A stretch of 64,000 nucleotides of DNA from Escherichia coli (GCF_024700885.2 NZ_CP117016.1), one strand, 5' to 3'. Counted from the stretch's first letter, positions 1 to 11,370 are shown. The notes: generated by a model from the sequence alone, not told the origin. Numbers and translations: made by a program.

Positions 1-215
1 AGTCAAATTTGTCCAACTTCCCTTGATTAAAAACAACGAGTTTTTTTATAGAAAAGAAAAACTTTCTCGCATAAGCTGAACTAAAATTCACAGCAGTATA
101 GGCAAGGGTCTCTTTTATAGATGCTAATAAGATAGCATTAATGTTTCTTTCAAAATATGAGAAATTTAATTTAACATCTTTGCTGAGAAACCAAACACTA
201 TCATGTAAACTAAAA

Positions 216-1547
216 TTATTTCTGCTGTCTTTTGCCTTTAATACCAAGTAATTTTCTAACATTAATGCTTTCATCTATTTCTCCTTCAATTTTATTTATG
301 ATTTCTTGATTCACTAAATCTGCCTCTTCAAAAGCTTTTAAAGTTTCTTCACTAATATAACGATTGTTATAAATCAAAGCCGTTTTGGAGTTCATTTTCC
401 ACCCCATTCTTACGCATCTGATTCTATCTAATTGGGTCAATCTATATTGATCAGTGACTCCTATGTATTTTAAACTGTAAATATAGTTCCATGTGTGCCG
501 TAGACAATGCCCTGTGAAATTTTGAAAAGATACTCCATTGAATTCAATTCTACTTATTTGCTTAATTACTTTATGATATGCACTTATTGACAGAGGAAAT
601 CCTTCCGTAGGACCAGATTTTTGAGTAATAAATAAGTAATTATGATTTAAGCTTTTCGAATAGAAAGACCTATCATTGTCTATATATGAAGAGATTTGCA
701 TAGACAATTTTTTGCTAATATTTAATTCTCGTTCAAATGTTTTAACAAGTGGTTGAAAAACTCTTGGGTCTGCTGGATCATTTATTCTTTTACAAACTTT
801 CAGATATCTTTTTTCCTTGTTAAAATCAGTAATTTTCAAGTTCAATAGCTCACCCCCTCGCATTCCAGTTTCCTGAAGAATGAGGATTATGAGTTGATTT
901 CTTTTACGGCAACTGATATCAACAAATGGATTGTATTGGCTTTCAGGTTCTATACATTGCAATAGAATGTCTAAGCTTTCTTTTTCTAATGATTTAAAAT
1001 CATTATTCAAATAGAATTGAGAGTTTAATTTTGGTTTATGTTTACGAAAAAGCAAACTAACACTTTTTGATATAATGTTTGTCTCATATATTGTAGTGCT
1101 AAAATATGATTCATAAATCCAAGAAATGTAGGAACTAATTACTGTCAATCTATAATGAAGATTTTCTTGATTGATCTTTTTATACTCTTTTATATCTATA
1201 ACTTTTTGTTTTTTATTTTTAACTCTAAGTTGTTCTGACAATGAATAGATTTCAGTAAAGCTAAGGAAGGTCTTAGATCTAATTCTTTCGATAAGATTTA
1301 TATTTGATTCTATTAGATAATTTTCAAAAGCAATCAAAGTGTAAGCATTTCTCAATACTGTATTAAATGACTTATTCTTTTGCTTATATAGCAAACTAAG
1401 ATATATATTTTGATAATACAATGGCAAACCGTTTTTTGAATCCAAAATCATACAAAATCTGCTTCCATCACTCGCCATTAACTTCTTTACTGAATATCTC
1501 CTATTCATTATCACCCCATAATTTATTTTTTTATTTATAGGTAACAT
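216..1547 (-). mobile_element. Tyrosine site-specific recombinase (phage integrase family), AT-rich foreign gene
   Basis: 443 aa ORF; recombinase motifs seen in translation: ETGMRGGELLNL (box I Arg), GHCLRHTWNY (H-x-x-R), LIYNNRY (candidate catalytic Tyr). Strongly AT-rich codon usage unlike flanking core genes. ATG at 1545-1547. Confidence 0.6.
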
Positions 1548-1626
1548 AATTTTTTAGCAAGTTACAAATTTATTTGCTATTATTTTCAATGACCTTATTA
1601 CTCGCGACTCTAATAAAGAATCGGCC

Positions 1627-1652
1627 ATATATTCACCTTAAGGTGAATATAT
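1627..1652. promoter_or_regulatory. Perfect 26-bp palindrome ATATATTCACCTTAAGGTGAATATAT just upstream of the tRNA cluster; candidate operator or recombinase site
   Basis: Read directly: 11-bp inverted arms around a TTAA centre, followed by TTGACG at 1661-1666. Function unverified. Confidence 0.3.
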
Positions 1653-1680
1653 ATTCCCTCTTGACGCTCCAAAAAACAAT

Positions 1681-1757
1681 GCGGTAGTAGTTCAGTTGGT
1701 CAGAATATTCCCCTGTCACGGGAATGGTCGTGGGTTCGAGTCCCATCTATCGCGCCA
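1681..1757 (+). tRNA. tRNA-Asp (anticodon GUC), island-borne
   Basis: Manual cloverleaf fold: acceptor GCGGTAG/CTATCGC, D arm GTTC/GAAT, anticodon stem TTCCC/GGGAA with loop CTGTCAC, T arm GTGGG-TTCGAGT-CCCAT, discriminator G, encoded CCA. Confidence 0.7.
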
Positions 1758-1761
1758 GAAA

Positions 1762-1836
1762 GGGCAATTAACTCATTGGTAGAGTGTATCTCTTACAAAG
1801 ATATGGCGGTTGGTTCGATTCCAACATTGCCCACCA
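1762..1836 (+). tRNA. tRNA-Val (anticodon UAC), island-borne
   Basis: Manual fold: acceptor GGGCAAT/ATTGCCC, D arm ACTC/GAGT, anticodon stem TATCT/AGATA with loop CTTACAA, T arm GTTGG-TTCGATT-CCAAC, encoded CCA. Differs from the chromosomal E. coli tRNA-Val sequence as recalled. Confidence 0.7.
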
Positions 1837-1847
1837 AAACATAAAAT

Positions 1848-1918
1848 GCGTCAGTATTTCAATGGTAGAATAAAACATTGCCAATGTTTAGGTGAGGGTT
1901 CGATCCCCCTATATTTAC
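1848..1918 (+). tRNA. tRNA-like element with Gly (GCC) anticodon arm; 3-prime acceptor strand not complementary, so possible pseudo-tRNA or recombination remnant
   Basis: D arm TTTC/GAAT, anticodon stem AAACA/TGTTT with loop TTGCCAA, T loop TTCGATC present. 5-prime acceptor GCGTCAG has no complementary 3-prime strand (ATATTTA) and no CCA. Confidence 0.3.
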
Positions 1919-2104: not shown

Positions 2105-2680
2105 ATGGTACGAAAAATCTCTACATTTTTAAAGATAATAGGAGTTATAGGTTCTTTATGCGGGATTATTGCGACAGTATTCACAATCTATGCGTACTAC
2201 AACCCGACCTCCCCTTCTACTCAGAGATATGACAGTATTGTAGGAAGCTGGCTATCTGATTACTCTTACACCGTAAAAGGGAATACCGTTAGGGTTAATG
2301 GAAAAACGACCTTCTTCTCTAATGGAAAATACAACTTTCATGGCAGTATCTCTATTGACTCTAATGCTCCAGGTGACCATATATTAATAGATTATCTTTC
2401 TGATGGTGCTGGTGATTGGGAACTATATGATAATGAGTTAATTACATCATTAAATAGCCTAAAAACAAAACCTATGAAGCTGGCTTTAAATAACGAAGAT
2501 CTTGATCCACTGAAAATAGAGGTGATAAACAATAAAAAGTTACCAACTATTGAGGAGAATATGGCTGATGGGAAAAACCAATCCTATAAAATAATAAAAT
2601 CTTCAAAAAGCCAGTTAACATTGGAGGTTATTAACGAAATCGGAAGCAATTTCAACTTTACTATGCAAAAAACAAAATAG
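2105..2680 (+). CDS. Hypothetical membrane-anchored protein (single N-terminal TM helix), island cargo
   Basis: 191 aa ORF; hydrophobic N-terminus FLKIIGVIGSLCGIIATVFTIYAYY; AT-rich; convergent with the helicase gene and sharing a terminator with it. Confidence 0.45.
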   Translation: MVRKISTFLKIIGVIGSLCGIIATVFTIYAYYNPTSPSTQRYDSIVGSWLSDYSYTVKGNTVRVNGKTTFFSNGKYNFHGSISIDSNAPGDHILIDYLSDGAGDWELYDNELITSLNSLKTKPMKLALNNEDLDPLKIEVINNKKLPTIEENMADGKNQSYKIIKSSKSQLTLEVINEIGSNFNFTMQKTK

Positions 2681-2682
2681 AA

Positions 2683-2714
2683 ATGATGGCGATCTGAAAT
2701 CGCCATCATTTTTC
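2683..2714. terminator. Bidirectional rho-independent terminator between convergent genes
   Basis: Hairpin TGATGGCGAT-cugaa-ATCGCCATCA followed by TTTTT. Confidence 0.5.
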
Positions 2715-4560
2715 AACCTTGATAATCTTCAGCCTCGATACCACAATAAGTTATCATGTTTGTTATTAACGGTATATCATTACAATTCTGCTTGAAAGAC
2801 CTGCCATAACTATTGTTTCTTATTTTACAACGAGTCATTAATACTTCTTCAATGGCTCTTGAAAATGCCACAAAGACTGTTTTTTGATTTTCTATTTGCT
2901 CTTCTTCTTTACCAAAATAGGCACCAGGTTCAAGCCCCACAACGATGACCTTCCTGAACTCTAACCCTTTACTTTTATGGATGGTCATAAGAGGTATTGT
3001 TTTATTGCCAAGTAATAAATCAATGGCTTCTGATGTGTTTTCTTTTACATCTAACTTATCGAGGTGGCGAGAAAGTAATTCTATGCTATATTCTAAAACA
3101 TTCCCACTCATATACTGCGGAAAGTAAGACTTTATTTTATCGACACCAAATATACTTAATAATGAATATAAATAATCGACAATTTCTCCTTTAATTACCC
3201 GATGAGATTTAATAAACTGGCTAAGTTCTTTTTCTAACCGTGTAACATCACCTCTTTTACTTACTCCTCTTATATTACATAGAAGCTCCATTGTAGTGGC
3301 CCAGCTTTCTATGGATTTTCTATTACAGACAAACATTAGCATTTGTAAAAGTAACTGTACTACAGCTTCATTTAAAAGATCCTGATACTCGTTCTCAAGG
3401 CGACATTGTATTTTCAAATATTGCAATGCTGAAATGATATCGTCTGTATATTGTTTAGCCGGGTTTCTTAGCAGTATACATATATCTCTTTCATTTACTC
3501 CTTCAGCAATCCATTGCTGGATACATAATGCTATATATGCCCCTTCAATACTACTTTCGTCAAATTGTAGTAACTTAGCTGAACCTTCATTTTCAATCAA
3601 CATCATATCAGGCTTTATATCAGCATGATTCATGAAAGCTTCCATCATGCGTTGATAATTTATGAGGTTTTTTAATGACCTTCTATTGCTAACTAATTCA
3701 TTAGATTGTTCGATTCCAAAATCTTTTTTAAACACATCAAAAGCATTGTGCATTGCACCTGCCCAACCCATTATTCTTTGTTTTGTATCACCGACTGCTG
3801 TTATTTTTATTTTTTTACCCAAGAAAATGCTCTTAAAAATCTCATATTGCCTATATGTTGTGTCCTGAAACTCATCGATAAAAGCATAGTCATATGTTGA
3901 ATTTATAGCATTAGATAAATATTGATTCCTACTAATAATATAATTAGCAAGAAAATTAATCATCTTGAATGAAATCCTTGATTTTGGTTTTAATAAGTGT
4001 AACCACACAAACCGTCTTATCCTGCCATCAACAGAATGTTCTAATGCTTTATTATAAGGAGTTACTATATAATTCTCTTCAAAATTATAAGGTTGTAATT
4101 TATTTAATTCTTCAGATGTTAAACCTTCAAAGCCTACGGCCTCTCTTTTAATTTCTTCAACTAAATCATTATTATTTGGAAAGATTATTTCATAGTCATT
4201 TGATGGACGATAAGATTCCGGAATAGTGCTTTTAAAGCGATCAACAATACTTTTACAGAATGCATCAAATGTTGTTGATTCAAATTTGTGTCTATATTTT
4301 GTATCAAGCCGTGAGTTTACTCTATCTTGAAGATTTTTGGCCGCATCTTTTTTAAAGGATAATGCAATTATTTTTTTATTGCTGCATTTTCCTGTCTCAA
4401 TCAAGAAACAAGCTTTCTGAGCCAATAATTCTGTTTTACCTGCACCGGGACCAGCAAGAACGAGATTATGCCCTGTACTATTTCGAATTACCCTCATAGC
4501 CTCGTCTTCTACTTCTTGGATATCCTTTAAAACCCAATCGGCATCTTTAATAGTCGGCAT
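2713..4560 (-). CDS. UvrD/PcrA-like superfamily 1 helicase (GajB-like)
   Basis: 615 aa; SF1 helicase motifs in translation: LAGPGAGKTELL (I), IDEFQDTT (II), GDTKQRIMGW (III), VSNRRS (IV), TIHKSKGLEF (V), VAFSRA (VI). ATG overlaps the upstream stop by 1 nt (TAATG). Confidence 0.8.
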   Translation of the reverse strand: MPTIKDADWVLKDIQEVEDEAMRVIRNSTGHNLVLAGPGAGKTELLAQKACFLIETGKCSNKKIIALSFKKDAAKNLQDRVNSRLDTKYRHKFESTTFDAFCKSIVDRFKSTIPESYRPSNDYEIIFPNNNDLVEEIKREAVGFEGLTSEELNKLQPYNFEENYIVTPYNKALEHSVDGRIRRFVWLHLLKPKSRISFKMINFLANYIISRNQYLSNAINSTYDYAFIDEFQDTTYRQYEIFKSIFLGKKIKITAVGDTKQRIMGWAGAMHNAFDVFKKDFGIEQSNELVSNRRSLKNLINYQRMMEAFMNHADIKPDMMLIENEGSAKLLQFDESSIEGAYIALCIQQWIAEGVNERDICILLRNPAKQYTDDIISALQYLKIQCRLENEYQDLLNEAVVQLLLQMLMFVCNRKSIESWATTMELLCNIRGVSKRGDVTRLEKELSQFIKSHRVIKGEIVDYLYSLLSIFGVDKIKSYFPQYMSGNVLEYSIELLSRHLDKLDVKENTSEAIDLLLGNKTIPLMTIHKSKGLEFRKVIVVGLEPGAYFGKEEEQIENQKTVFVAFSRAIEEVLMTRCKIRNNSYGRSFKQNCNDIPLITNMITYCGIEAEDYQG

Positions 4561-6548
4561 TAAAGTAATCCTCTTACTGTTTCGATAATTTCATTAAGAA
4601 CTTCAGGACTATCATCTCTTAACTTATCGTCTTCCATTTTTGATAGAACATAATTGTGCGATAATGGTTTACCTCTTCCTAAAAATAGGTAACGATACCA
4701 AAAATATTTTTCATAATCATCGAACTCACTAATATCAATATCTTTCTCTTCTTTTTTCAAAACTGCAGCAATTGCCGATTTAACTTTATTATCATATTCA
4801 TGATCGTCATCTTTTGGCAATCTTGGCCCACCATTTTTGGGAACAAATGTCTTATAATCCTCAAAGAATTTATTAAGCATTAGCCAATCTAAATCGTAGG
4901 GGTAAGAAAAATAAACATTATAATCTTTTAGACAATTAATCCATGCCGATTCATTATCTTGATCCTCATCCCATGTATGCATTTTTTCAAGCTCTTCATC
5001 ACTTAAAGTTCCTGAAGTAATACTTAACAATTCATTTTTATCTGCACCTATAGATATTAATTGTTTGACTGCATATTTAATTCTTCCCCAACCACCACCT
5101 CCTCCTCTCTTGAAATCATAGTCGAGAAGAGTCACATGTGGAATTGAAAGCTCATTGAGTAACTTCCAAAAATGATTAACATATCGCCCTCCTAATGGAG
5201 CAAATGTTATCAATGAAGTGTCAAGCTCTATACCATTTACTTGAGCTATTTTAGGTATTACTATTTCTTCGCTATCACCTTCACCAAGTATTACAACTTT
5301 TGCAAAATAAATTTCTGGATATGCCTTCACTGCTTCTTTTACATAAGTGAAAGTATCAACATTGTCTCCATCGTCTTCATCTTCGCTTGGTAATAATATT
5401 GGTTTGACAACAGTATTTTTATTATCATGTAGACGAAAATACCTTATATTTTCTGGTTCTACTCTATTGAGTAATGAAGGTGCGTGTGTTGTTAAAACAA
5501 CCTGTGCTCGATCATTCTCAGATATATCTTCACATAGTTTAACTATTCTTCCTAAATATTGGGGTGAAAGATGATTTTCTGGTTCTTCGATTAATATTAT
5601 CGTTAAATTTGGAGGATCTAATGCTTCTACTGATATTGATAATTCATTTTCTCCTGAATTAATGATCTCATCTTCAATATCAAATGCAGATTTGACTAAC
5701 GAAAGATAAAACAATGACTTCATACCATCACTCAATCTTTCAGTTGGTAATGGCTGAGTCACCGGAGTAGGCATAAATACAGTATCTATATGCTTTAATA
5801 CATCTTCTATTCCATTCATTACTGGCTGAATTTTAAGCTGTTCAAAATACCCTCCGCTAAAAAGAGTTTTCCAATTTCTGCCCAATGAAGATGTTATTGT
5901 CTGAACCCCAATTTCTTCTTGGAACTGGTTTCCGATTGATTCTGCAACCTCATCAACCGTTGAACTCATCTGTTCAGACCATTCAACTGCATTTATCAAA
6001 CGGTGCATGATGGTTCCGGCTGTTTGCTTCAGTTGTTGAGCAGGATCGCGATAAGCAGGGACATAATGAACATGGATTTTTGATCTTTCATATGCTGTAA
6101 TATTTTTTTCATATTCTCCTATTTCCCATACTAAATCACTATCTATATCCCCTTCTGCAAGATTAGTTTTTGTCCATTTAGCTTTTAATTTTGCTATACA
6201 GTATGGGATCTGGTCTGCTTCATTTGAGACCAAATGCTTAAAGAAATCAGCGACTGAATCGTCCTCACCATCTTGCAGATCTGCAAATTCAAATTTTACA
6301 CGAACTGATAATTCTCTTTCATCTTGAGTATCGATTTCATCTCCAGGAGGAACATAAAAATCATCAACTTGAACAATTCTATCGGAGCTTTTGACACCAA
6401 ACATCCTTGTCAATGCGAGGAGAACAGCCGTCTTACCTGTTCCATTCCCTCCAATTAAGCTGGTGAATGAATTTATATTTATAGTTTGCCCTACATTATC
6501 AAAGCTCTTAAAACCTTTGATCTCCATTTGTGTAATTTTCATTATCAC
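4560..6548 (-). CDS. OLD-family ABC-type ATPase with C-terminal TOPRIM nuclease domain (GajA-like)
   Basis: 662 aa ORF from a GTG; likelier ATG start at 6542 with GAGGTG Shine-Dalgarno. Walker A GGNGTGKT, ILIEEPENHLSP (Walker B/D-loop typical of OLD ATPases), VLTTHAP (H-loop), TOPRIM-like VVILGEGDSEEIV and LLDYDFKRGGGGGWG. Confidence 0.8.
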   Translation of the reverse strand: MIMKITQMEIKGFKSFDNVGQTININSFTSLIGGNGTGKTAVLLALTRMFGVKSSDRIVQVDDFYVPPGDEIDTQDERELSVRVKFEFADLQDGEDDSVADFFKHLVSNEADQIPYCIAKLKAKWTKTNLAEGDIDSDLVWEIGEYEKNITAYERSKIHVHYVPAYRDPAQQLKQTAGTIMHRLINAVEWSEQMSSTVDEVAESIGNQFQEEIGVQTITSSLGRNWKTLFSGGYFEQLKIQPVMNGIEDVLKHIDTVFMPTPVTQPLPTERLSDGMKSLFYLSLVKSAFDIEDEIINSGENELSISVEALDPPNLTIILIEEPENHLSPQYLGRIVKLCEDISENDRAQVVLTTHAPSLLNRVEPENIRYFRLHDNKNTVVKPILLPSEDEDDGDNVDTFTYVKEAVKAYPEIYFAKVVILGEGDSEEIVIPKIAQVNGIELDTSLITFAPLGGRYVNHFWKLLNELSIPHVTLLDYDFKRGGGGGWGRIKYAVKQLISIGADKNELLSITSGTLSDEELEKMHTWDEDQDNESAWINCLKDYNVYFSYPYDLDWLMLNKFFEDYKTFVPKNGGPRLPKDDDHEYDNKVKSAIAAVLKKEEKDIDISEFDDYEKYFWYRYLFLGRGKPLSHNYVLSKMEDDKLRDDSPEVLNEIIETVRGLL

Positions 6549-7195
6549 CTCAATTGCTGTTTTAAAAAATTATAATCACTAATTATTTCTGCGTTTGTAA
6601 TGATTTCTTGTGAGCACAGCTTAAAACATTCTAAAAATATATTTTTATTATCGTTATGTTCCCAATGTTTTTTCAAAGCTTCTTCAATTGAAATCCAAAT
6701 AACTTGAAAATCGTTATTAGATATTTGGCTTGTTAAAACTGTTTCTTCCACACAAAGTATATGCCCTAAGATGACATCATCGTATATGTCAGTATCTGAA
6801 TCTCTAACTCCTAACCTTTTTATTTTCCTTTTTTGGATGATTTTATTTTTAACAATAAAAGGATGTTCTTCTATAAAATCGGTCAATGATGTAAAAGCCA
6901 AGCCACGAACCTGAGCACCATGCATTGAACTATTTACTTTATGGATATCTCTCCAAACTCGCAGATCACCTAATACATAGAGAACCCGCTGATTTCTCGC
7001 TTTCGTATCTTCTGCTTGGTATTGGATATAAGGTGGCCCTCCCCCATTTTGTCTATATCGGGCAAGGGTTTTGATGCTTATGCCAAGAAAGACAGAAGCA
7101 AGCTCACTATTTACAGTGGCAGAATCAGGCATTTGACCAAATAGTTTCCATACCTCTGAATACTCCCGCAAAACTTCCACCACACTCATCTTCAC
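6545..7195 (-). CDS. HTH-domain protein (excisionase/MerR-like N-terminus plus uncharacterised ~130 aa C-terminal domain), first gene of the defense operon
   Basis: 216 aa ORF (GTG at 7195 or ATG at 7189). N-terminal ELASVFLGISIKTLARYRQNGGGPPYIQY resembles excisionase-type HTH. Starts within 2 nt of the integrase stop and ends 2 nt before the GajA-like start. Confidence 0.5.
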   Translation of the reverse strand: MKMSVVEVLREYSEVWKLFGQMPDSATVNSELASVFLGISIKTLARYRQNGGGPPYIQYQAEDTKARNQRVLYVLGDLRVWRDIHKVNSSMHGAQVRGLAFTSLTDFIEEHPFIVKNKIIQKRKIKRLGVRDSDTDIYDDVILGHILCVEETVLTSQISNNDFQVIWISIEEALKKHWEHNDNKNIFLECFKLCSQEIITNAEIISDYNFLKQQLR

Positions 7196-8655
7196 TCCCT
7201 CGTTTCAGGTAATGGAGGATACTTAGCCGAAGCAAGTAACACATTGTATAATTTAGGAGCAGTCATAAGCATATGCAACTCAATCCTTTGTAATGCTTCA
7301 AAAATCCGTTCTTGATCAGGTTCTGCATACCTTTCTGTTGGATCTGTTGTATTTCTGTGATTGAGCAGTCTCTTAACGACGGCATATGAAACAAGTTCTT
7401 CAGCAACCCTACCAAATGTCCTTCGTAGATCATGCATACCAAGCTTCAGGATTCCCGCCTCTTGGCAGATATATTCCCTTAGACTTTTACTATCGGAATA
7501 GTGACCAACTTTACTTCGAGAAGAACGGGCCGGGAAAACCCACTTCTGTTTGTCCTTCTGGGTTACCGTATCGTTTACTATGTCTCTTCTATCTTCCAAA
7601 ATTCTTTTGACAGCATCACAAATCGGAAGCTCGTGATCGTTTCGATTCTTAGTGTCGTAAAAACGGATAGTTCTGTTACTCAGGTCAACATAGCTTGTCG
7701 TTTTAGCTTCTTCCTTTGTAAGAGACTCTCGCCAACACAGAGAAGCTGTTTCTTCCTTACGAGCACCTAAGAGAACGGTAAGTAGCAGATAATCGCACCC
7801 AAGCCGGTTGAAGCTTCTCTTGTTGAACAATGCAGTCAAGAACCGACCAAGTGTATCCTTTGGTGATAAGGGGTTTCTGACACCTTTTGCCCGATAACTA
7901 TCCTCAAGCTCAGAACGTGTCCTAAACTTTTTCTGTACCTTTAAGATACTGAAAGGGTTGTAAGATAGAGAAGGTTGTCGTTGCTGGGTCTGAGCATTCC
8001 CAGCTTCAATCTCTATTGCGTGTTTTACAGCAACATTCGCCCACCTAAAGGTCTGTTCCGCTGCTGTTCTGGCTCTTGAAGCAATCTCATCAAACTTCCT
8101 AAGAATTTCATTACCAGTAAGATCTTTAACTCGCAAACCAGCCCACTCAGAAAGCCTGTTTTCTGCTTTATCTAATACAGCCAAGGTGTTGGGTTTAGCT
8201 GGTTTCGCTCTACCCAGCAGATGCTGGCGGTATTGTGCAAACACTTCACTGATAGTGAGTTCAGAAGCATCGGACTCCCGTTTTATTTTGTTAGGGTTCC
8301 TTTTGGTCAACTTCATGGTTTGAACTAAATTGCGAGCAACCTCGCGGGCTTGATCGATGTTAGCGAAATCAGAGACATTGCCAATTGTAGACCTGATAAC
8401 CTCAGATGGGGATTTTCCCCCTGTCTTAGGGCGATTGCCAGGAGAAGAGACTCGTCGCTGAACGATATAGGTCTTTTTCGTTGCACTGATTTTGACACCA
8501 AAACCAACGGGTGAATCCCGGTGATTATCAGTGATAAGATACGGTTTTCGCTCTGGATTGGGTAAGTAGACTACTCTGCCTTGCGGATCAAGGCTCGGTT
8601 TCACGTCGATAGATAACTTATTGATTATAATCGACTGATTGAGTGTCATTTTCAT
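7192..8655 (-). mobile_element. int: P4-type tyrosine integrase
   Basis: ORF track 7192..8763; trimmed to internal ATG (MKMTLNQ...) at 8653-8655. N-terminal arm-binding-like region (YLITDNHRDSPVGFGVKISATKKTYIVQRR), box I ARKEE, HDLRRTF, C-terminal ERY. Near-host GC, unlike the cargo. Confidence 0.8.
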
Positions 8656-8658
8656 CGA

Positions 8659-8717
8659 TGTATACCAGTGGTTCAAGTGTGTATACCAGATAGTAGCTAG
8701 AATACTTCTGGTATACA
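8659..8717. repeat. Three copies of TGTATACCAG (two direct, one inverted) at the integrase 5-prime end; candidate integrase-binding or att-associated sites
   Basis: Exact 10-mers at 8659-8668 and 8680-8689 (direct) and 8708-8717 (inverted), between the integrase start and mutS. Confidence 0.45.
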
Positions 8718-8787: not shown

Positions 8788-11370
8788 ATGAGTAAAATCA
8801 ATATGAAAGAGTCTGCAAGCAAGGATCTATCAGACCACACTCCTATGATGCAGCAATATCTCAAGCTGAAAGCCCAGCATCCCGAGATCCTGCTGTTTTA
8901 CCGGATGGGTGATTTTTATGAACTGTTTTATGACGACGCAAAACGCGCGTCGCAACTGCTGGATATTTCACTGACCAAACGCGGTGCTTCGGCGGGAGAG
9001 CCGATCCCGATGGCGGGGATCCCCTACCATGCGGTGGAAAACTACCTCGCCAAACTGGTGAATCAGGGCGAGTCCGTTGCCATCTGCGAACAAATTGGCG
9101 ATCCGGCGACCAGCAAAGGTCCGGTTGAGCGCAAAGTTGTGCGTATCGTTACGCCAGGCACCATCAGCGATGAAGCCCTGTTGCAGGAGCGTCAGGACAA
9201 CCTGCTGGCGGCTATCTGGCAGGACAGCAAAGGTTTCGGCTACGCGACGCTGGATATCAGTTCCGGGCGTTTTCGCCTGAGCGAACCGGCTGACCGCGAA
9301 ACGATGGCGGCAGAGCTGCAACGCACTAATCCGGCAGAGCTGTTGTATGCAGAAAATTTCGCCGAGATGTCGCTGATTGAAGGTCGTCGCGGACTGCGCC
9401 GTCGCCCGCTATGGGAGTTTGAAATCGACACCGCGCGCCAGCAGTTGAATCTGCAATTTGGCACCCGCGATCTGGTCGGTTTTGGCGTCGAGAACGCGCC
9501 GCGCGGACTTTGTGCTGCCGGTTGTCTGTTGCAGTATGCGAAAGATACCCAACGTACGACTCTGCCGCATATTCGTTCCATCACCATGGAACGTGAGCAG
9601 GACAGCATCATTATGGATGCCGCGACGCGTCGTAATCTGGAAATCACCCAGAACCTGGCGGGTGGTGCGGAAAATACGCTGGCTTCTGTGCTCGACTGCA
9701 CCGTCACGCCGATGGGCAGCCGTATGCTGAAACGCTGGCTGCATATGCCAGTGCGCGATACCCGCGTCTTGCTTGAGCGCCAGCAAACTATTGGCGCATT
9801 GCAGGATTTCACCGCCGAGCTGCAGCCGGTACTGCGTCAGGTCGGCGACCTGGAACGTATTCTGGCGCGTCTGGCTTTACGAACTGCTCGCCCACGCGAT
9901 CTGGCCCGTATGCGTCACGCTTTCCAGCAACTGCCGGAGCTGCGTGCGCTATTAGAAAATGTCGATAGCGCTCCGGTACAGGCGCTGCGTGAAAAAATGG
10001 GCGAGTTTGCCGAGCTGCGCGATCTGCTGGAGCGAGCAATCATCGACACACCGCCAGTGCTGGTACGCGACGGTGGTGTTATCGCACCGGGCTATAACGA
10101 AGAGCTGGATGAGTGGCGCGCGCTGGCTGACGGCGCGACCGATTATCTGGAGCGTCTGGAAGTCCGCGAGCGTGAACGTACTGGCCTGGACACCCTGAAA
10201 GTCGGCTTTAACGCGGTTCATGGTTATTACATTCAGATCAGCCGTGGACAAAGCCATCTGGCACCCATCAATTACATGCGTCGCCAGACGCTGAAAAACG
10301 CCGAGCGCTACATTATTCCAGAGCTAAAAGAGTACGAAGACAAAGTTCTCACTTCAAAAGGCAAAGCACTGGCACTGGAAAAACAGCTTTATGAAGAGTT
10401 GTTCGACCTGCTGTTGCCGCATCTGGAAGCGTTGCAACAGAGCGCGAGCGCGCTGGCGGAACTCGACGTGCTGGTGAACCTGGCAGAACGGGCCTATACG
10501 CTGAACTACACCTGCCCGACCTTTATTGATAAACCGGGTATTCGCATCACCGAAGGCCGCCATCCGGTGGTTGAACAGGTGCTGAATGAGCCGTTTATCG
10601 CCAACCCGCTGAACCTGTCGCCGCAGCGTCGCATGTTGATCATTACCGGTCCGAATATGGGCGGTAAAAGTACCTATATGCGCCAGACCGCACTGATTGC
10701 GCTGATGGCCTACATCGGCAGCTATGTACCGGCACAAAAAGTCGAGATTGGACCTATCGATCGCATCTTTACCCGCGTAGGGGCAGCGGATGATCTGGCA
10801 TCCGGGCGTTCAACCTTTATGGTGGAAATGACCGAAACCGCCAATATTTTACATAACGCCACCGAGTACAGTCTGGTGCTGATGGATGAGATTGGGCGCG
10901 GGACGTCCACTTACGATGGTCTGTCGCTGGCGTGGGCGTGCGCGGAAAATCTGGCGAATAAGATTAAAGCGTTGACACTGTTTGCCACCCACTATTTCGA
11001 GCTGACCCAGTTACCGGAGAAAATGGAAGGCGTCGCCAACGTGCATCTCGATGCGCTGGAGCACGGCGACACCATTGCCTTTATGCACAGCGTGCAGGAT
11101 GGCGCGGCGAGCAAAAGCTACGGCCTGGCGGTTGCAGCTCTGGCAGGCGTGCCAAAAGAGGTTATTAAGCGCGCACGGCAAAAACTGCGTGAGCTGGAAA
11201 GCATTTCGCCGAACGCCGCCGCTACGCAAGTGGATGGTACGCAAATGTCTTTGCTGTCAGTGCCAGAAGAAACGTCGCCTGCGGTCGAGGCACTGGAAAA
11301 CCTCGACCCGGATTCACTGACTCCGCGTCAGGCGCTGGAGTGGATTTATCGCTTGAAGAGTCTGGTGTAA
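8788..11370 (+). CDS. mutS: DNA mismatch repair protein MutS, with a non-K-12 N-terminus
   Basis: 860 aa; near-identical to E. coli MutS from about residue 17 (HTPMMQQYL...). First ~16 residues ([16 protein letters not shown]) differ from the K-12 N-terminus (MSAIENFDA, from memory). Confidence 0.95.

Follow-up and report, generated by a model that had tools for sequence, protein, structure and literature searches.

What is a second, strikingly AT-rich tyrosine recombinase doing in an island that already has an integrase of its own? The question is raised by the first lines of a stretch of 64,000 nucleotides from Escherichia coli (GCF_024700885.2, NZ_CP117016.1; this whole stretch is the window in what follows), where a gene on the minus strand had been noticed at what was taken to be the left edge of an island, the right end of which carries another recombinase. 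The original prediction understood the pair as a nested or tandem composite, or else the AT-rich gene as an accessory of the invertase or resolvase type. The explanation that we find best, and in which we have good confidence, is that the gene codes for GinA, belonging to an operon derived from the GInt family of mobile elements and lodged inside one single integrase-bounded integrative mobilizable element (IME) at mutS. The generic label 'tyrosine recombinase' can thus be replaced by a much more informative one, that of GinA in a GInt module with three integrases; the island itself is a known defence hotspot of E. coli. Over the region compared the window is identical to strain CFSAN061761 (locus L001), a window position being the L001 position minus 20,000.

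We may start with the gene itself, and with its immediate neighbour in the operon:

216..1508, minus strand: ginA-like tyrosine recombinase, 430 aa (longest open reading frame to 1547, 443 aa)
860-858 (R), 743-741 (K), 509-498 (HxxR), 401-399 (W) and 371-369 (Y), minus strand: catalytic codons of ginA
1..274, minus strand: 5' part of ginB (91 codons), the gene being truncated where the window begins (full gene at L001 18904-20274)

The minus strand of 216..1547 is an unbroken open reading frame (ORF) of 443 aa, with a match to the Pfam family Phage_integrase at E=1.5e-13. While a frame of that length does exist, as had been claimed, the protein is likely to be of 430 aa, for an ATG at 1508, preceded by the ribosome-binding site GGGGTGA, is the RefSeq start and the place where homologues begin. 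The catalytic set that was put forward as an R...H-x-x-R...Y signature is in fact complete on the family alignment, none of its residues being lost: R217, K256, H334-x-x-R337, W370 and Y380 (R230, K269, H347-x-x-R350, W383 and Y393 in the numbering of the longer frame) show no variation in either of two homologue alignments (21 and 73 sequences). A single-sequence phmmer search against the Protein Data Bank gave only a marginal match to XerH, and it took a family profile to bring boxes I and II into alignment with XerC-like and XerA recombinases of solved structure (4a8e, 1.6e-10; 5hxy). We regard the product of 216-1508 as a genuine tyrosine recombinase, predicted to be catalytically complete. 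Its composition is indeed very different from that of the right-hand integrase, the ginA ORF having 28.5% G+C where the integrase at 7192-8655 has 43.4% and mutS 56%, and the families differ too.

The gene does not stand alone. Four overlapping genes on the same strand, ginA (430 aa), ginB (456 aa), ginC (548 aa) and ginD (127 aa), follow one another, ginB overlapping the 3' end of ginA by 59 nt; the second, a recombinase, has a Pfam match at 4.7e-13, and the third carries a 'hypothetical' annotation. When 100,044 species genomes were scanned with a GinC profile (548 aa), 80 loci came out, and the gin genes in them were assigned with profiles built for each gene. These loci range over the Enterobacterales, Pseudomonas, Aeromonas, the Betaproteobacteria, the Alphaproteobacteria and, among deltaproteobacteria, Desulfobacterium, and the order ginA-B-C-D is constant wherever all four genes lie inside the locus. 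Each of the four proteins matches its own counterpart in the operons of Stutzerimonas, Pseudomonas and Aeromonas (BLASTP, 24-45% identity, E from 1e-17 to 1e-68), the Stutzerimonas operon being placed directly after ssb, which is the published site of GInts (PMC5385486). With the NCBIfam model NF041502 the canonical GinB of Stutzerimonas scores 598 bits and the GinB studied here 221 bits, under the cut-off of 350. The ginC and ginD genes of a sister E. coli island (L003), with products 62% and 79% identical to those of the present one, figure in the published ginC/ginD orthologue table and are absent from the table of the SE family (tfp/srap); accessions of the L001/L002 type and of the L007/L008 type found no match among the entries listed in the GInt orthologue table. 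On these homologies we assign the gene at 216-1508 to GinA, first protein of a GInt-type ginABCD operon. In Pseudomonas, experiments have established that all four genes are required for excision of the element as a circle and for its site-specific integration (Bardaji 2017, PMC5385486).

The other two recombinases of the operon deserve attention. GinB keeps R198, K225, R329-x-x-R332, H355 and Y364, the first histidine being replaced by arginine. GinC has been described as devoid of the first arginine (Bardaji 2017, PMC5385486) and of the RHRY motif (Idola 2023, PMC10214605). Differing from these descriptions, R209, K241, H425, R428, W448 and Y460, a full R-K-H-R-W-Y set with canonical spacing, are invariant here and in 77 to 80 homologues, canonical GInt loci included, spread over four proteobacterial classes; these residues sit on the expected secondary-structure elements, and the modelled protein has a full two-domain tyrosine recombinase fold. 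GinC looks catalytically complete, and it seems to be the published lack of catalytic residues that is doubtful, rather than this operon that is an outlier, so that a conserved catalytic hexad puts a statement about the family in question.

Where, then, does the operon reside? The following features delimit the island, whose outermost recombinase is referred to here as the outer integrase:

7192..8655, minus strand: outer tyrosine integrase, 487 aa (longest ORF to 8763)
8660-8667 (minus strand), 8681-8688 (minus strand) and 8709-8716 (plus strand): three copies of TGGTATAC, candidate arm-type sites, in the region 8660..8716
L001 10315-10322: left-end copy of TGGTATAC
8788..11370, plus strand: mutS, its first ~16 codons and upstream region coming from the island
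8835..8858 (L001 28835-28858), plus strand: right copy of the direct repeat, in mutS codons, exact core at 8845-8858
L001 10221-10244, outside the window: left copy of the direct repeat

The island is 18.6 kb long and runs from ygbA to mutS, two genes that K-12 keeps 286 bp apart with no insert, which served as the comparison for placing the ends. As 9,756 bp of it lie to the left of the window in CFSAN061761, and as the window opens inside the next gene, ginA cannot be seated at the island's left edge, where it had been put. On both sides the island is flanked by a direct repeat of mutS codons (exact core ATGATGCAGCAGTA, 14 bp; 21/24 bp overall). Insertion took place inside the mutS coding sequence: the first ~8 codons have been replaced by 16 new ones, together with the native upstream region, and the reading frame stayed intact, while the old mutS promoter and the first 50 nt of the gene are stranded beside ygbA (L001 10195-10244). 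The same arrangement is found in eight genera, where homologues of the outer integrase, 76-98% identical, always adjoin mutS, from which we infer that the 487-aa enzyme targets this gene. It had been called P4-type; yet it has only a C-terminal Phage_integrase domain, with no recognised N-terminal domain (neither Arm-DNA-bind_3 nor Phage_int_M), no NCBIfam match, and no BLASTP similarity to the P4-like integrases with Arm-DNA-bind_3 of L008 and L015. All four copies of TGGTATAC present in the 42-kb locus are at the island ends, ~70-185 bp from the repeats, for 0.79 expected by chance, and the sequence that flanks them is conserved between islands; we consider them candidate arm-type sites of the outer integrase. 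Having mutS repeats and the arm motif at both ends, the 18.6 kb thus make one integrase-bounded element. It has a single relaxase (PF03432, 5e-27), no genes of a type IV secretion system being annotated in the 18.6 kb, and with its integrase, its mutS direct repeats and this relaxase the whole island is a predicted IME. A literature search for an IME that targets mutS found nothing. Counting the three Gin proteins and the outer integrase, the island has four genes of the tyrosine recombinase fold; of the two recombinases originally singled out there remain two separate recombination modules, of which one is headed by ginA.

In the strain of the window the operon is broken. An IS1A copy splits ginC at codon 441 (L001 16824-17591, outside the window; the intact gene spans L002 17271-18917), flanked by a 9-bp target duplication, ATCAGAGAG. 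Because it cuts off the part of GinC that bears W448 and Y460, the Gin module is most likely inactive there; NCTC8623, isolate 538 and Salmonella have an unbroken ginABCD. One might accordingly see the operon as a decaying relic of a GInt, without present function, the outer integrase doing everything. In keeping with this, some islands have no gin genes (L006, L012), others bear an IS3 deletion (L005, L011), and a Pectobacterium copy (L093) is pseudogenised. Beside IS3-family elements, related islands of E24377A and of strain 504838 have lost ginABCD and the greater part of the relaxase. Decay is however at odds with the way these genes have evolved. Among three mutS-integrated copies, the ratio of non-synonymous to synonymous substitution rates (dN/dS) of ginA to ginD is 0.10-0.26 in 11 of the 12 comparisons, 0.54 being reached only by the short ginD of L002 versus L096; none of the three recombinases shows variation at its catalytic residues, and in eight genera an intact operon goes together with the same outer integrase. 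A relic is, to our mind, very improbable indeed. Purifying selection together with kept catalytic residues argues for a function in the lineages where the operon is intact, and the gin genes, being under such selection, are therefore probably a second recombination machine, the role of which in this island is deduced rather than witnessed.

Is this machine part of the element, or does it constitute an element of its own? At mutS of Salmonella Telelkebir the order is identical: integrase, 214-aa gene, GajA, GajB, 191-aa gene, ginABCD, relaxase. The same integrase with a gin operon adjoins mutS in Dickeya, Citrobacter, Rahnella, Erwinia, Pantoea and Klebsiella. Recurring at mutS in Salmonella and in six other genera, the composite so moves as one unit. 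More generally, the gin operon of Enterobacterales is always followed by a conserved 141-aa gene, then by a MobA/VirD2-type relaxase and its MobC-like partner, and where the sequence extends far enough upstream (23 loci), 17 show a distinct integrase no more than ~7 kb ahead of the operon, either of the mutS type or P4-like and adjoining tRNA-Leu, tRNA-Gly, tRNA-Arg or tRNA-Thr. Outside the Enterobacterales, integrase, relaxase and 141-aa gene are all missing from the ~45 gin loci. The relaxase backbone is present in 468 of 5,426 complete E. coli genomes, a frequency that agrees with the published figure for GInts, 7.5% of Escherichia replicons. The gene of the 141-aa protein (L002 16367-16792) follows ginD in all these Enterobacterales loci; the protein, with no assigned function, is 88-92% identical between elements with Gin proteins only ~33% identical, and it is present in gin-less mutS islands at ~43% identity.

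That the gin module might be a GInt in its own right, nested within a small integrase element or placed in tandem to it, with ends of its own and separate excision, has some arguments behind it. There are signs of modularity: an outer integrase of 89% identity may go with a GinC of only ~35%, and the mosaic has sharp borders, GinA to GinD falling to 30-36% identity between L002 and L007/L008 next to a 141-aa gene that stays 88-92% identical. Cargo borders fall exactly at the ginD stop and at the integrase stop. Six Enterobacterales loci and E. coli L007 have a gin-relaxase unit with no outer integrase within ~7 kb (L007, L029 and L048 are examples of such units), and in L007 and L048 homology to integrase-bearing relatives breaks off at a shared point, which lies between the integrase and DUF6387. 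Such an element ought nevertheless to have borders, and the candidate ones offer nothing of the kind. A third mutS core (up to 3 mismatches in 14 bp) is missing from the gin/cargo junction in all four islands searched; a search for direct repeats shared by the inner left end with the integrase stop, or with the border upstream of gin, gave sporadic 9-mers only, inconsistent between islands; terminal inverted repeats around the gin module come down to AT-rich matches at 70-86%, none of them convincing. The flanking direct or inverted repeats that the original prediction called for are therefore reduced to one pair, the mutS core that bounds the whole 18.6 kb, which gin-less islands also have and which the arm motif of the outer integrase accompanies. 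As this motif is borne by the left island end, that end is not the 3' end of a GInt. There is, besides, a single relaxase, and the full composite is kept at the same site in E. coli and in Salmonella. We consider an independent GInt to be decidedly unlikely, and retain one element with two modules: the early idea of a composite survives, and no boundaries proper to the gin operon were found. An integrase/attP cassette within a mobilizable GInt and a GInt within a minimal integrase element are, on a circle, one and the same topology, and either could have come first. As for a role as invertase or resolvase, it was rejected, no inverted sites bracketing any segment and homologous operons being machines for excision and integration.

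The DNA on the other side of ginA, between the operon and the outer integrase, consists of a conserved region, interrupted by a small insertion, and of variable cargo:

1509..1652: conserved ginA upstream region, first part, with the motif GTTACAAATTTATTTG at 1561-1576
1627-1652: perfect 26-bp palindrome, ATATATTCACCTTAAGGTGAATATAT
1653..1902, plus strand: tRNA block, 250 bp, an insertion relative to sister islands
1681-1757, plus strand: tRNA-Asp(GTC), Rfam 66.6 bits
1762-1836, plus strand: tRNA-Val(TAC), Rfam 67.8 bits
1855-1910, plus strand: 3'-truncated tRNA-Gly(GCC)-like copy, Rfam 34.4 bits
1903..1985: conserved upstream region, second part, CCCCCTATATTTAC ... TTTTGTAAAG; sister-island conservation stops near 1985
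1978-1949, minus strand (that of gin): promoter-like site TTTACA-18-TATTAT
2105..7195: cargo region, variable, separating gin from the integrase
2105-2680, plus strand: 191-aa ORF, unannotated
2713-4560, minus strand: gajB (PADLOC GajB, 659 bits)
4560-6548, minus strand: gajA (PADLOC GajA, 798 bits)
6545-7195, minus strand: 216-aa ORF, unannotated

The cargo at 2713-6548 is a predicted Gabija defence system, and the order of the element reads integrase, Gabija cargo, ginABCD, relaxase, further cargo. Sister islands have Qat, DRT3 or other genes at the position of Gabija, and retron Ec48, TIR or ABC-three-component systems at a second cargo site. Some 440 bp upstream of ginA are conserved with the gin module. 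The core of the palindrome, TTCACCTTAAGGTGAA, is kept upstream of gin operons of E. coli, Yersinia, Pectobacterium, Dickeya and Citrobacter, with GinA only 35-66% identical, and it is absent from the gin clade of L007/L008 and from canonical GInts. The palindrome lends itself to a division into 10-bp arms and a 6-bp centre, as in the core site of a recombinase, and would be either a transcriptional operator or an intact attachment site of the Gin module. The motif TTTACAAATTTATTTG was considered as a terminal repeat and discarded, the region upstream of ginA being the one place where it occurs; a weak match near the right end belongs to the integrase arm region.

The tRNA block, present in 4 of 5,426 E. 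coli genomes, the strain of the window included, is placed exactly at the right edge of the palindrome, between it and CCCCCTATATTTAC, and ends within the T-arm of the third tRNA. A search of phage DNA yielded no donor, only a generic similarity of 74-80% to tRNA-Asp. It looks like a site-specific capture event, in a single case. One may wonder whether the Gin proteins exchange or capture cargo at the palindrome in an integron-like manner, or assist or regulate the outer integrase. Such a role, already speculated upon when the Gin integrases were proposed to acquire foreign DNA (Bardaji 2017, PMC5385486), would fit with a palindrome more conserved than the Gin proteins themselves, with variable defence cargo that abuts the conserved region upstream of gin, and with a block exactly beside the palindrome that ends in a tRNA T-arm, a classic target of recombinases. 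The cargo border is however ~95 bp away from the palindrome, where one insertion event only has been seen; no repeated att-like sites separate the cargo genes; and the L007/L008 clade, like canonical GInts, does without the palindrome altogether. Cargo capture, or help to the outer integrase, appears to us quite improbable as the main role of these proteins.

We come back therefore to a GInt-derived operon within one integrase-bounded IME. In this account the outer 487-aa integrase would have placed the whole 18.6-kb element in the 5' end of mutS, whereas the Gin module, coming from a GInt ancestor, would be a second and self-contained machine for excision and integration, or for transposition, possibly an alternative route for the element, for example onto other replicons. 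Several points weigh against it. The operon is not at the end of the island, and no repeats of the Gin att type were found; Gin-mediated recombination in this sub-lineage is conjectured, no junction in the sequence bearing its mark; the palindrome could simply be a transcriptional operator; and the gin-less islands L006 and L012 share the integrase, the relaxase and the mutS repeats with the others, the gin module being therefore dispensable for residence at mutS.

How far does this arrangement depart from what is known? Its likeness to GInts is considerable: the same four overlapping genes in the same order, with one-to-one homology and a GinB that matches the same NCBIfam model; the catalytic motif of tyrosine recombinases in GinA and GinB; variable DNA that begins at the ginD stop codon; and a cargo of anti-phage defence, as in E. 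coli GInts (Hochhauser 2023, PMC10121019). The differences are nonetheless substantial. While the canonical operon delimits the 5' end of the element, attL being a few hundred bp upstream of ginA, the gene is here 7.3 kb from the right end of the island and 11.3 kb from the left one, the Gabija cargo and a second integrase being interposed between it and the island junction. GInts are described as non-mobilizable and have no other integrase; here we find a MOB relaxase, and an extra conventional integrase whose own att repeats bound the island. As to the imperfect direct repeats of 10-17 nt that flank GInts, the one flanking pair seen here is the mutS core, and the candidate internal borders yielded no repeats.

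The mutS/ygbA interval is hotspot #8 of the survey of E. coli defence islands, occupied in 27 of 1322 genomes, with examples that the part of the survey considered here labels 'IME' or 'None' (Hochhauser 2023, PMC10121019). The survey has, at other hotspots, a mixed 'IME__GInt' class, in which relaxase-bearing IME features go with a GInt cassette. The survey classifies by gene content alone; the att site in mutS and the arm sites, the location of gin away from the island ends and the selection on it receive no description there. We can therefore understand the GInt module inside a relaxase-bearing, integrase-bounded defence island at mutS as a variant of a known system.

Other families of multiple recombinases were compared. 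The SEs (strand-biased circularizing integrative elements, intA-tfp-intB-srap; Idola 2023, PMC10214605) also have a four-gene gammaproteobacterial recombination operon, with a large atypical protein of recombinase fold and a small TnpC-like protein. Their non-canonical protein is however encoded second, while the second gene is here a Pfam-positive recombinase, and they form a separate sequence cluster, the L003 homologues being listed, as noted above, with ginC and ginD. Membership of the SEs was thus set aside on gene order and on orthologue tables, without direct comparison of SE proteins. RIT (Recombinase In Trio) elements resemble the present operon in having multiple adjacent tyrosine recombinases, all of which keep the catalytic tyrosine, as do the three proteins here. 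With proteins of 315-410 aa, no fourth gene and terminal inverted repeats of ~34 bp, they differ from an operon of 430, 456 and 548 aa to which ginD is added and around which no convincing inverted repeats were found; they were rejected on these grounds. Tn554, the TnpC of which GinD is reported to resemble, has two recombinases only. Finally GmtY, of the gamma-mobile-trio (NF040693), was discarded with 27 bits for a cut-off of 340, the canonical GinA of L073 scoring 27 bits as well.

What remains is a GInt module under purifying selection in an element that already has an integrase and a relaxase, within a family that displays at least five outer integration specificities across the Enterobacterales. 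How and why two recombination systems are kept on one mobile island is not described in the literature that we searched. It is tempting to generalize: Enterobacterales may hold widespread mobile defence islands with a dual system, in which an integrase parks the element at mutS or at tRNA-Leu, -Gly, -Arg or -Thr, and the Gin module, with the palindrome as its att site and GinC as an active enzyme rather than a dead scaffold, opens a second route, onto conjugative plasmids or towards cargo capture such as that of the tRNA block. This is a speculation to which we would give a rather small chance of being right as a whole.

The island also has a bearing on its host. In Streptococcus pyogenes, the island SpyCIM1, at the 5' end of mutL, controls the expression of mismatch repair. 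The likeness is that of a mobile island at the 5' end of a mismatch-repair gene; the difference is that here the mutS start and its upstream region are replaced with the reading frame left intact. Rewriting the start of mutS and the region upstream of it could affect mismatch-repair expression, hence mutation rates. Dual recombination systems bear, in addition, on the way defence systems are shuffled between strains, and two routes of mobility, if shown, would raise the importance of such systems.

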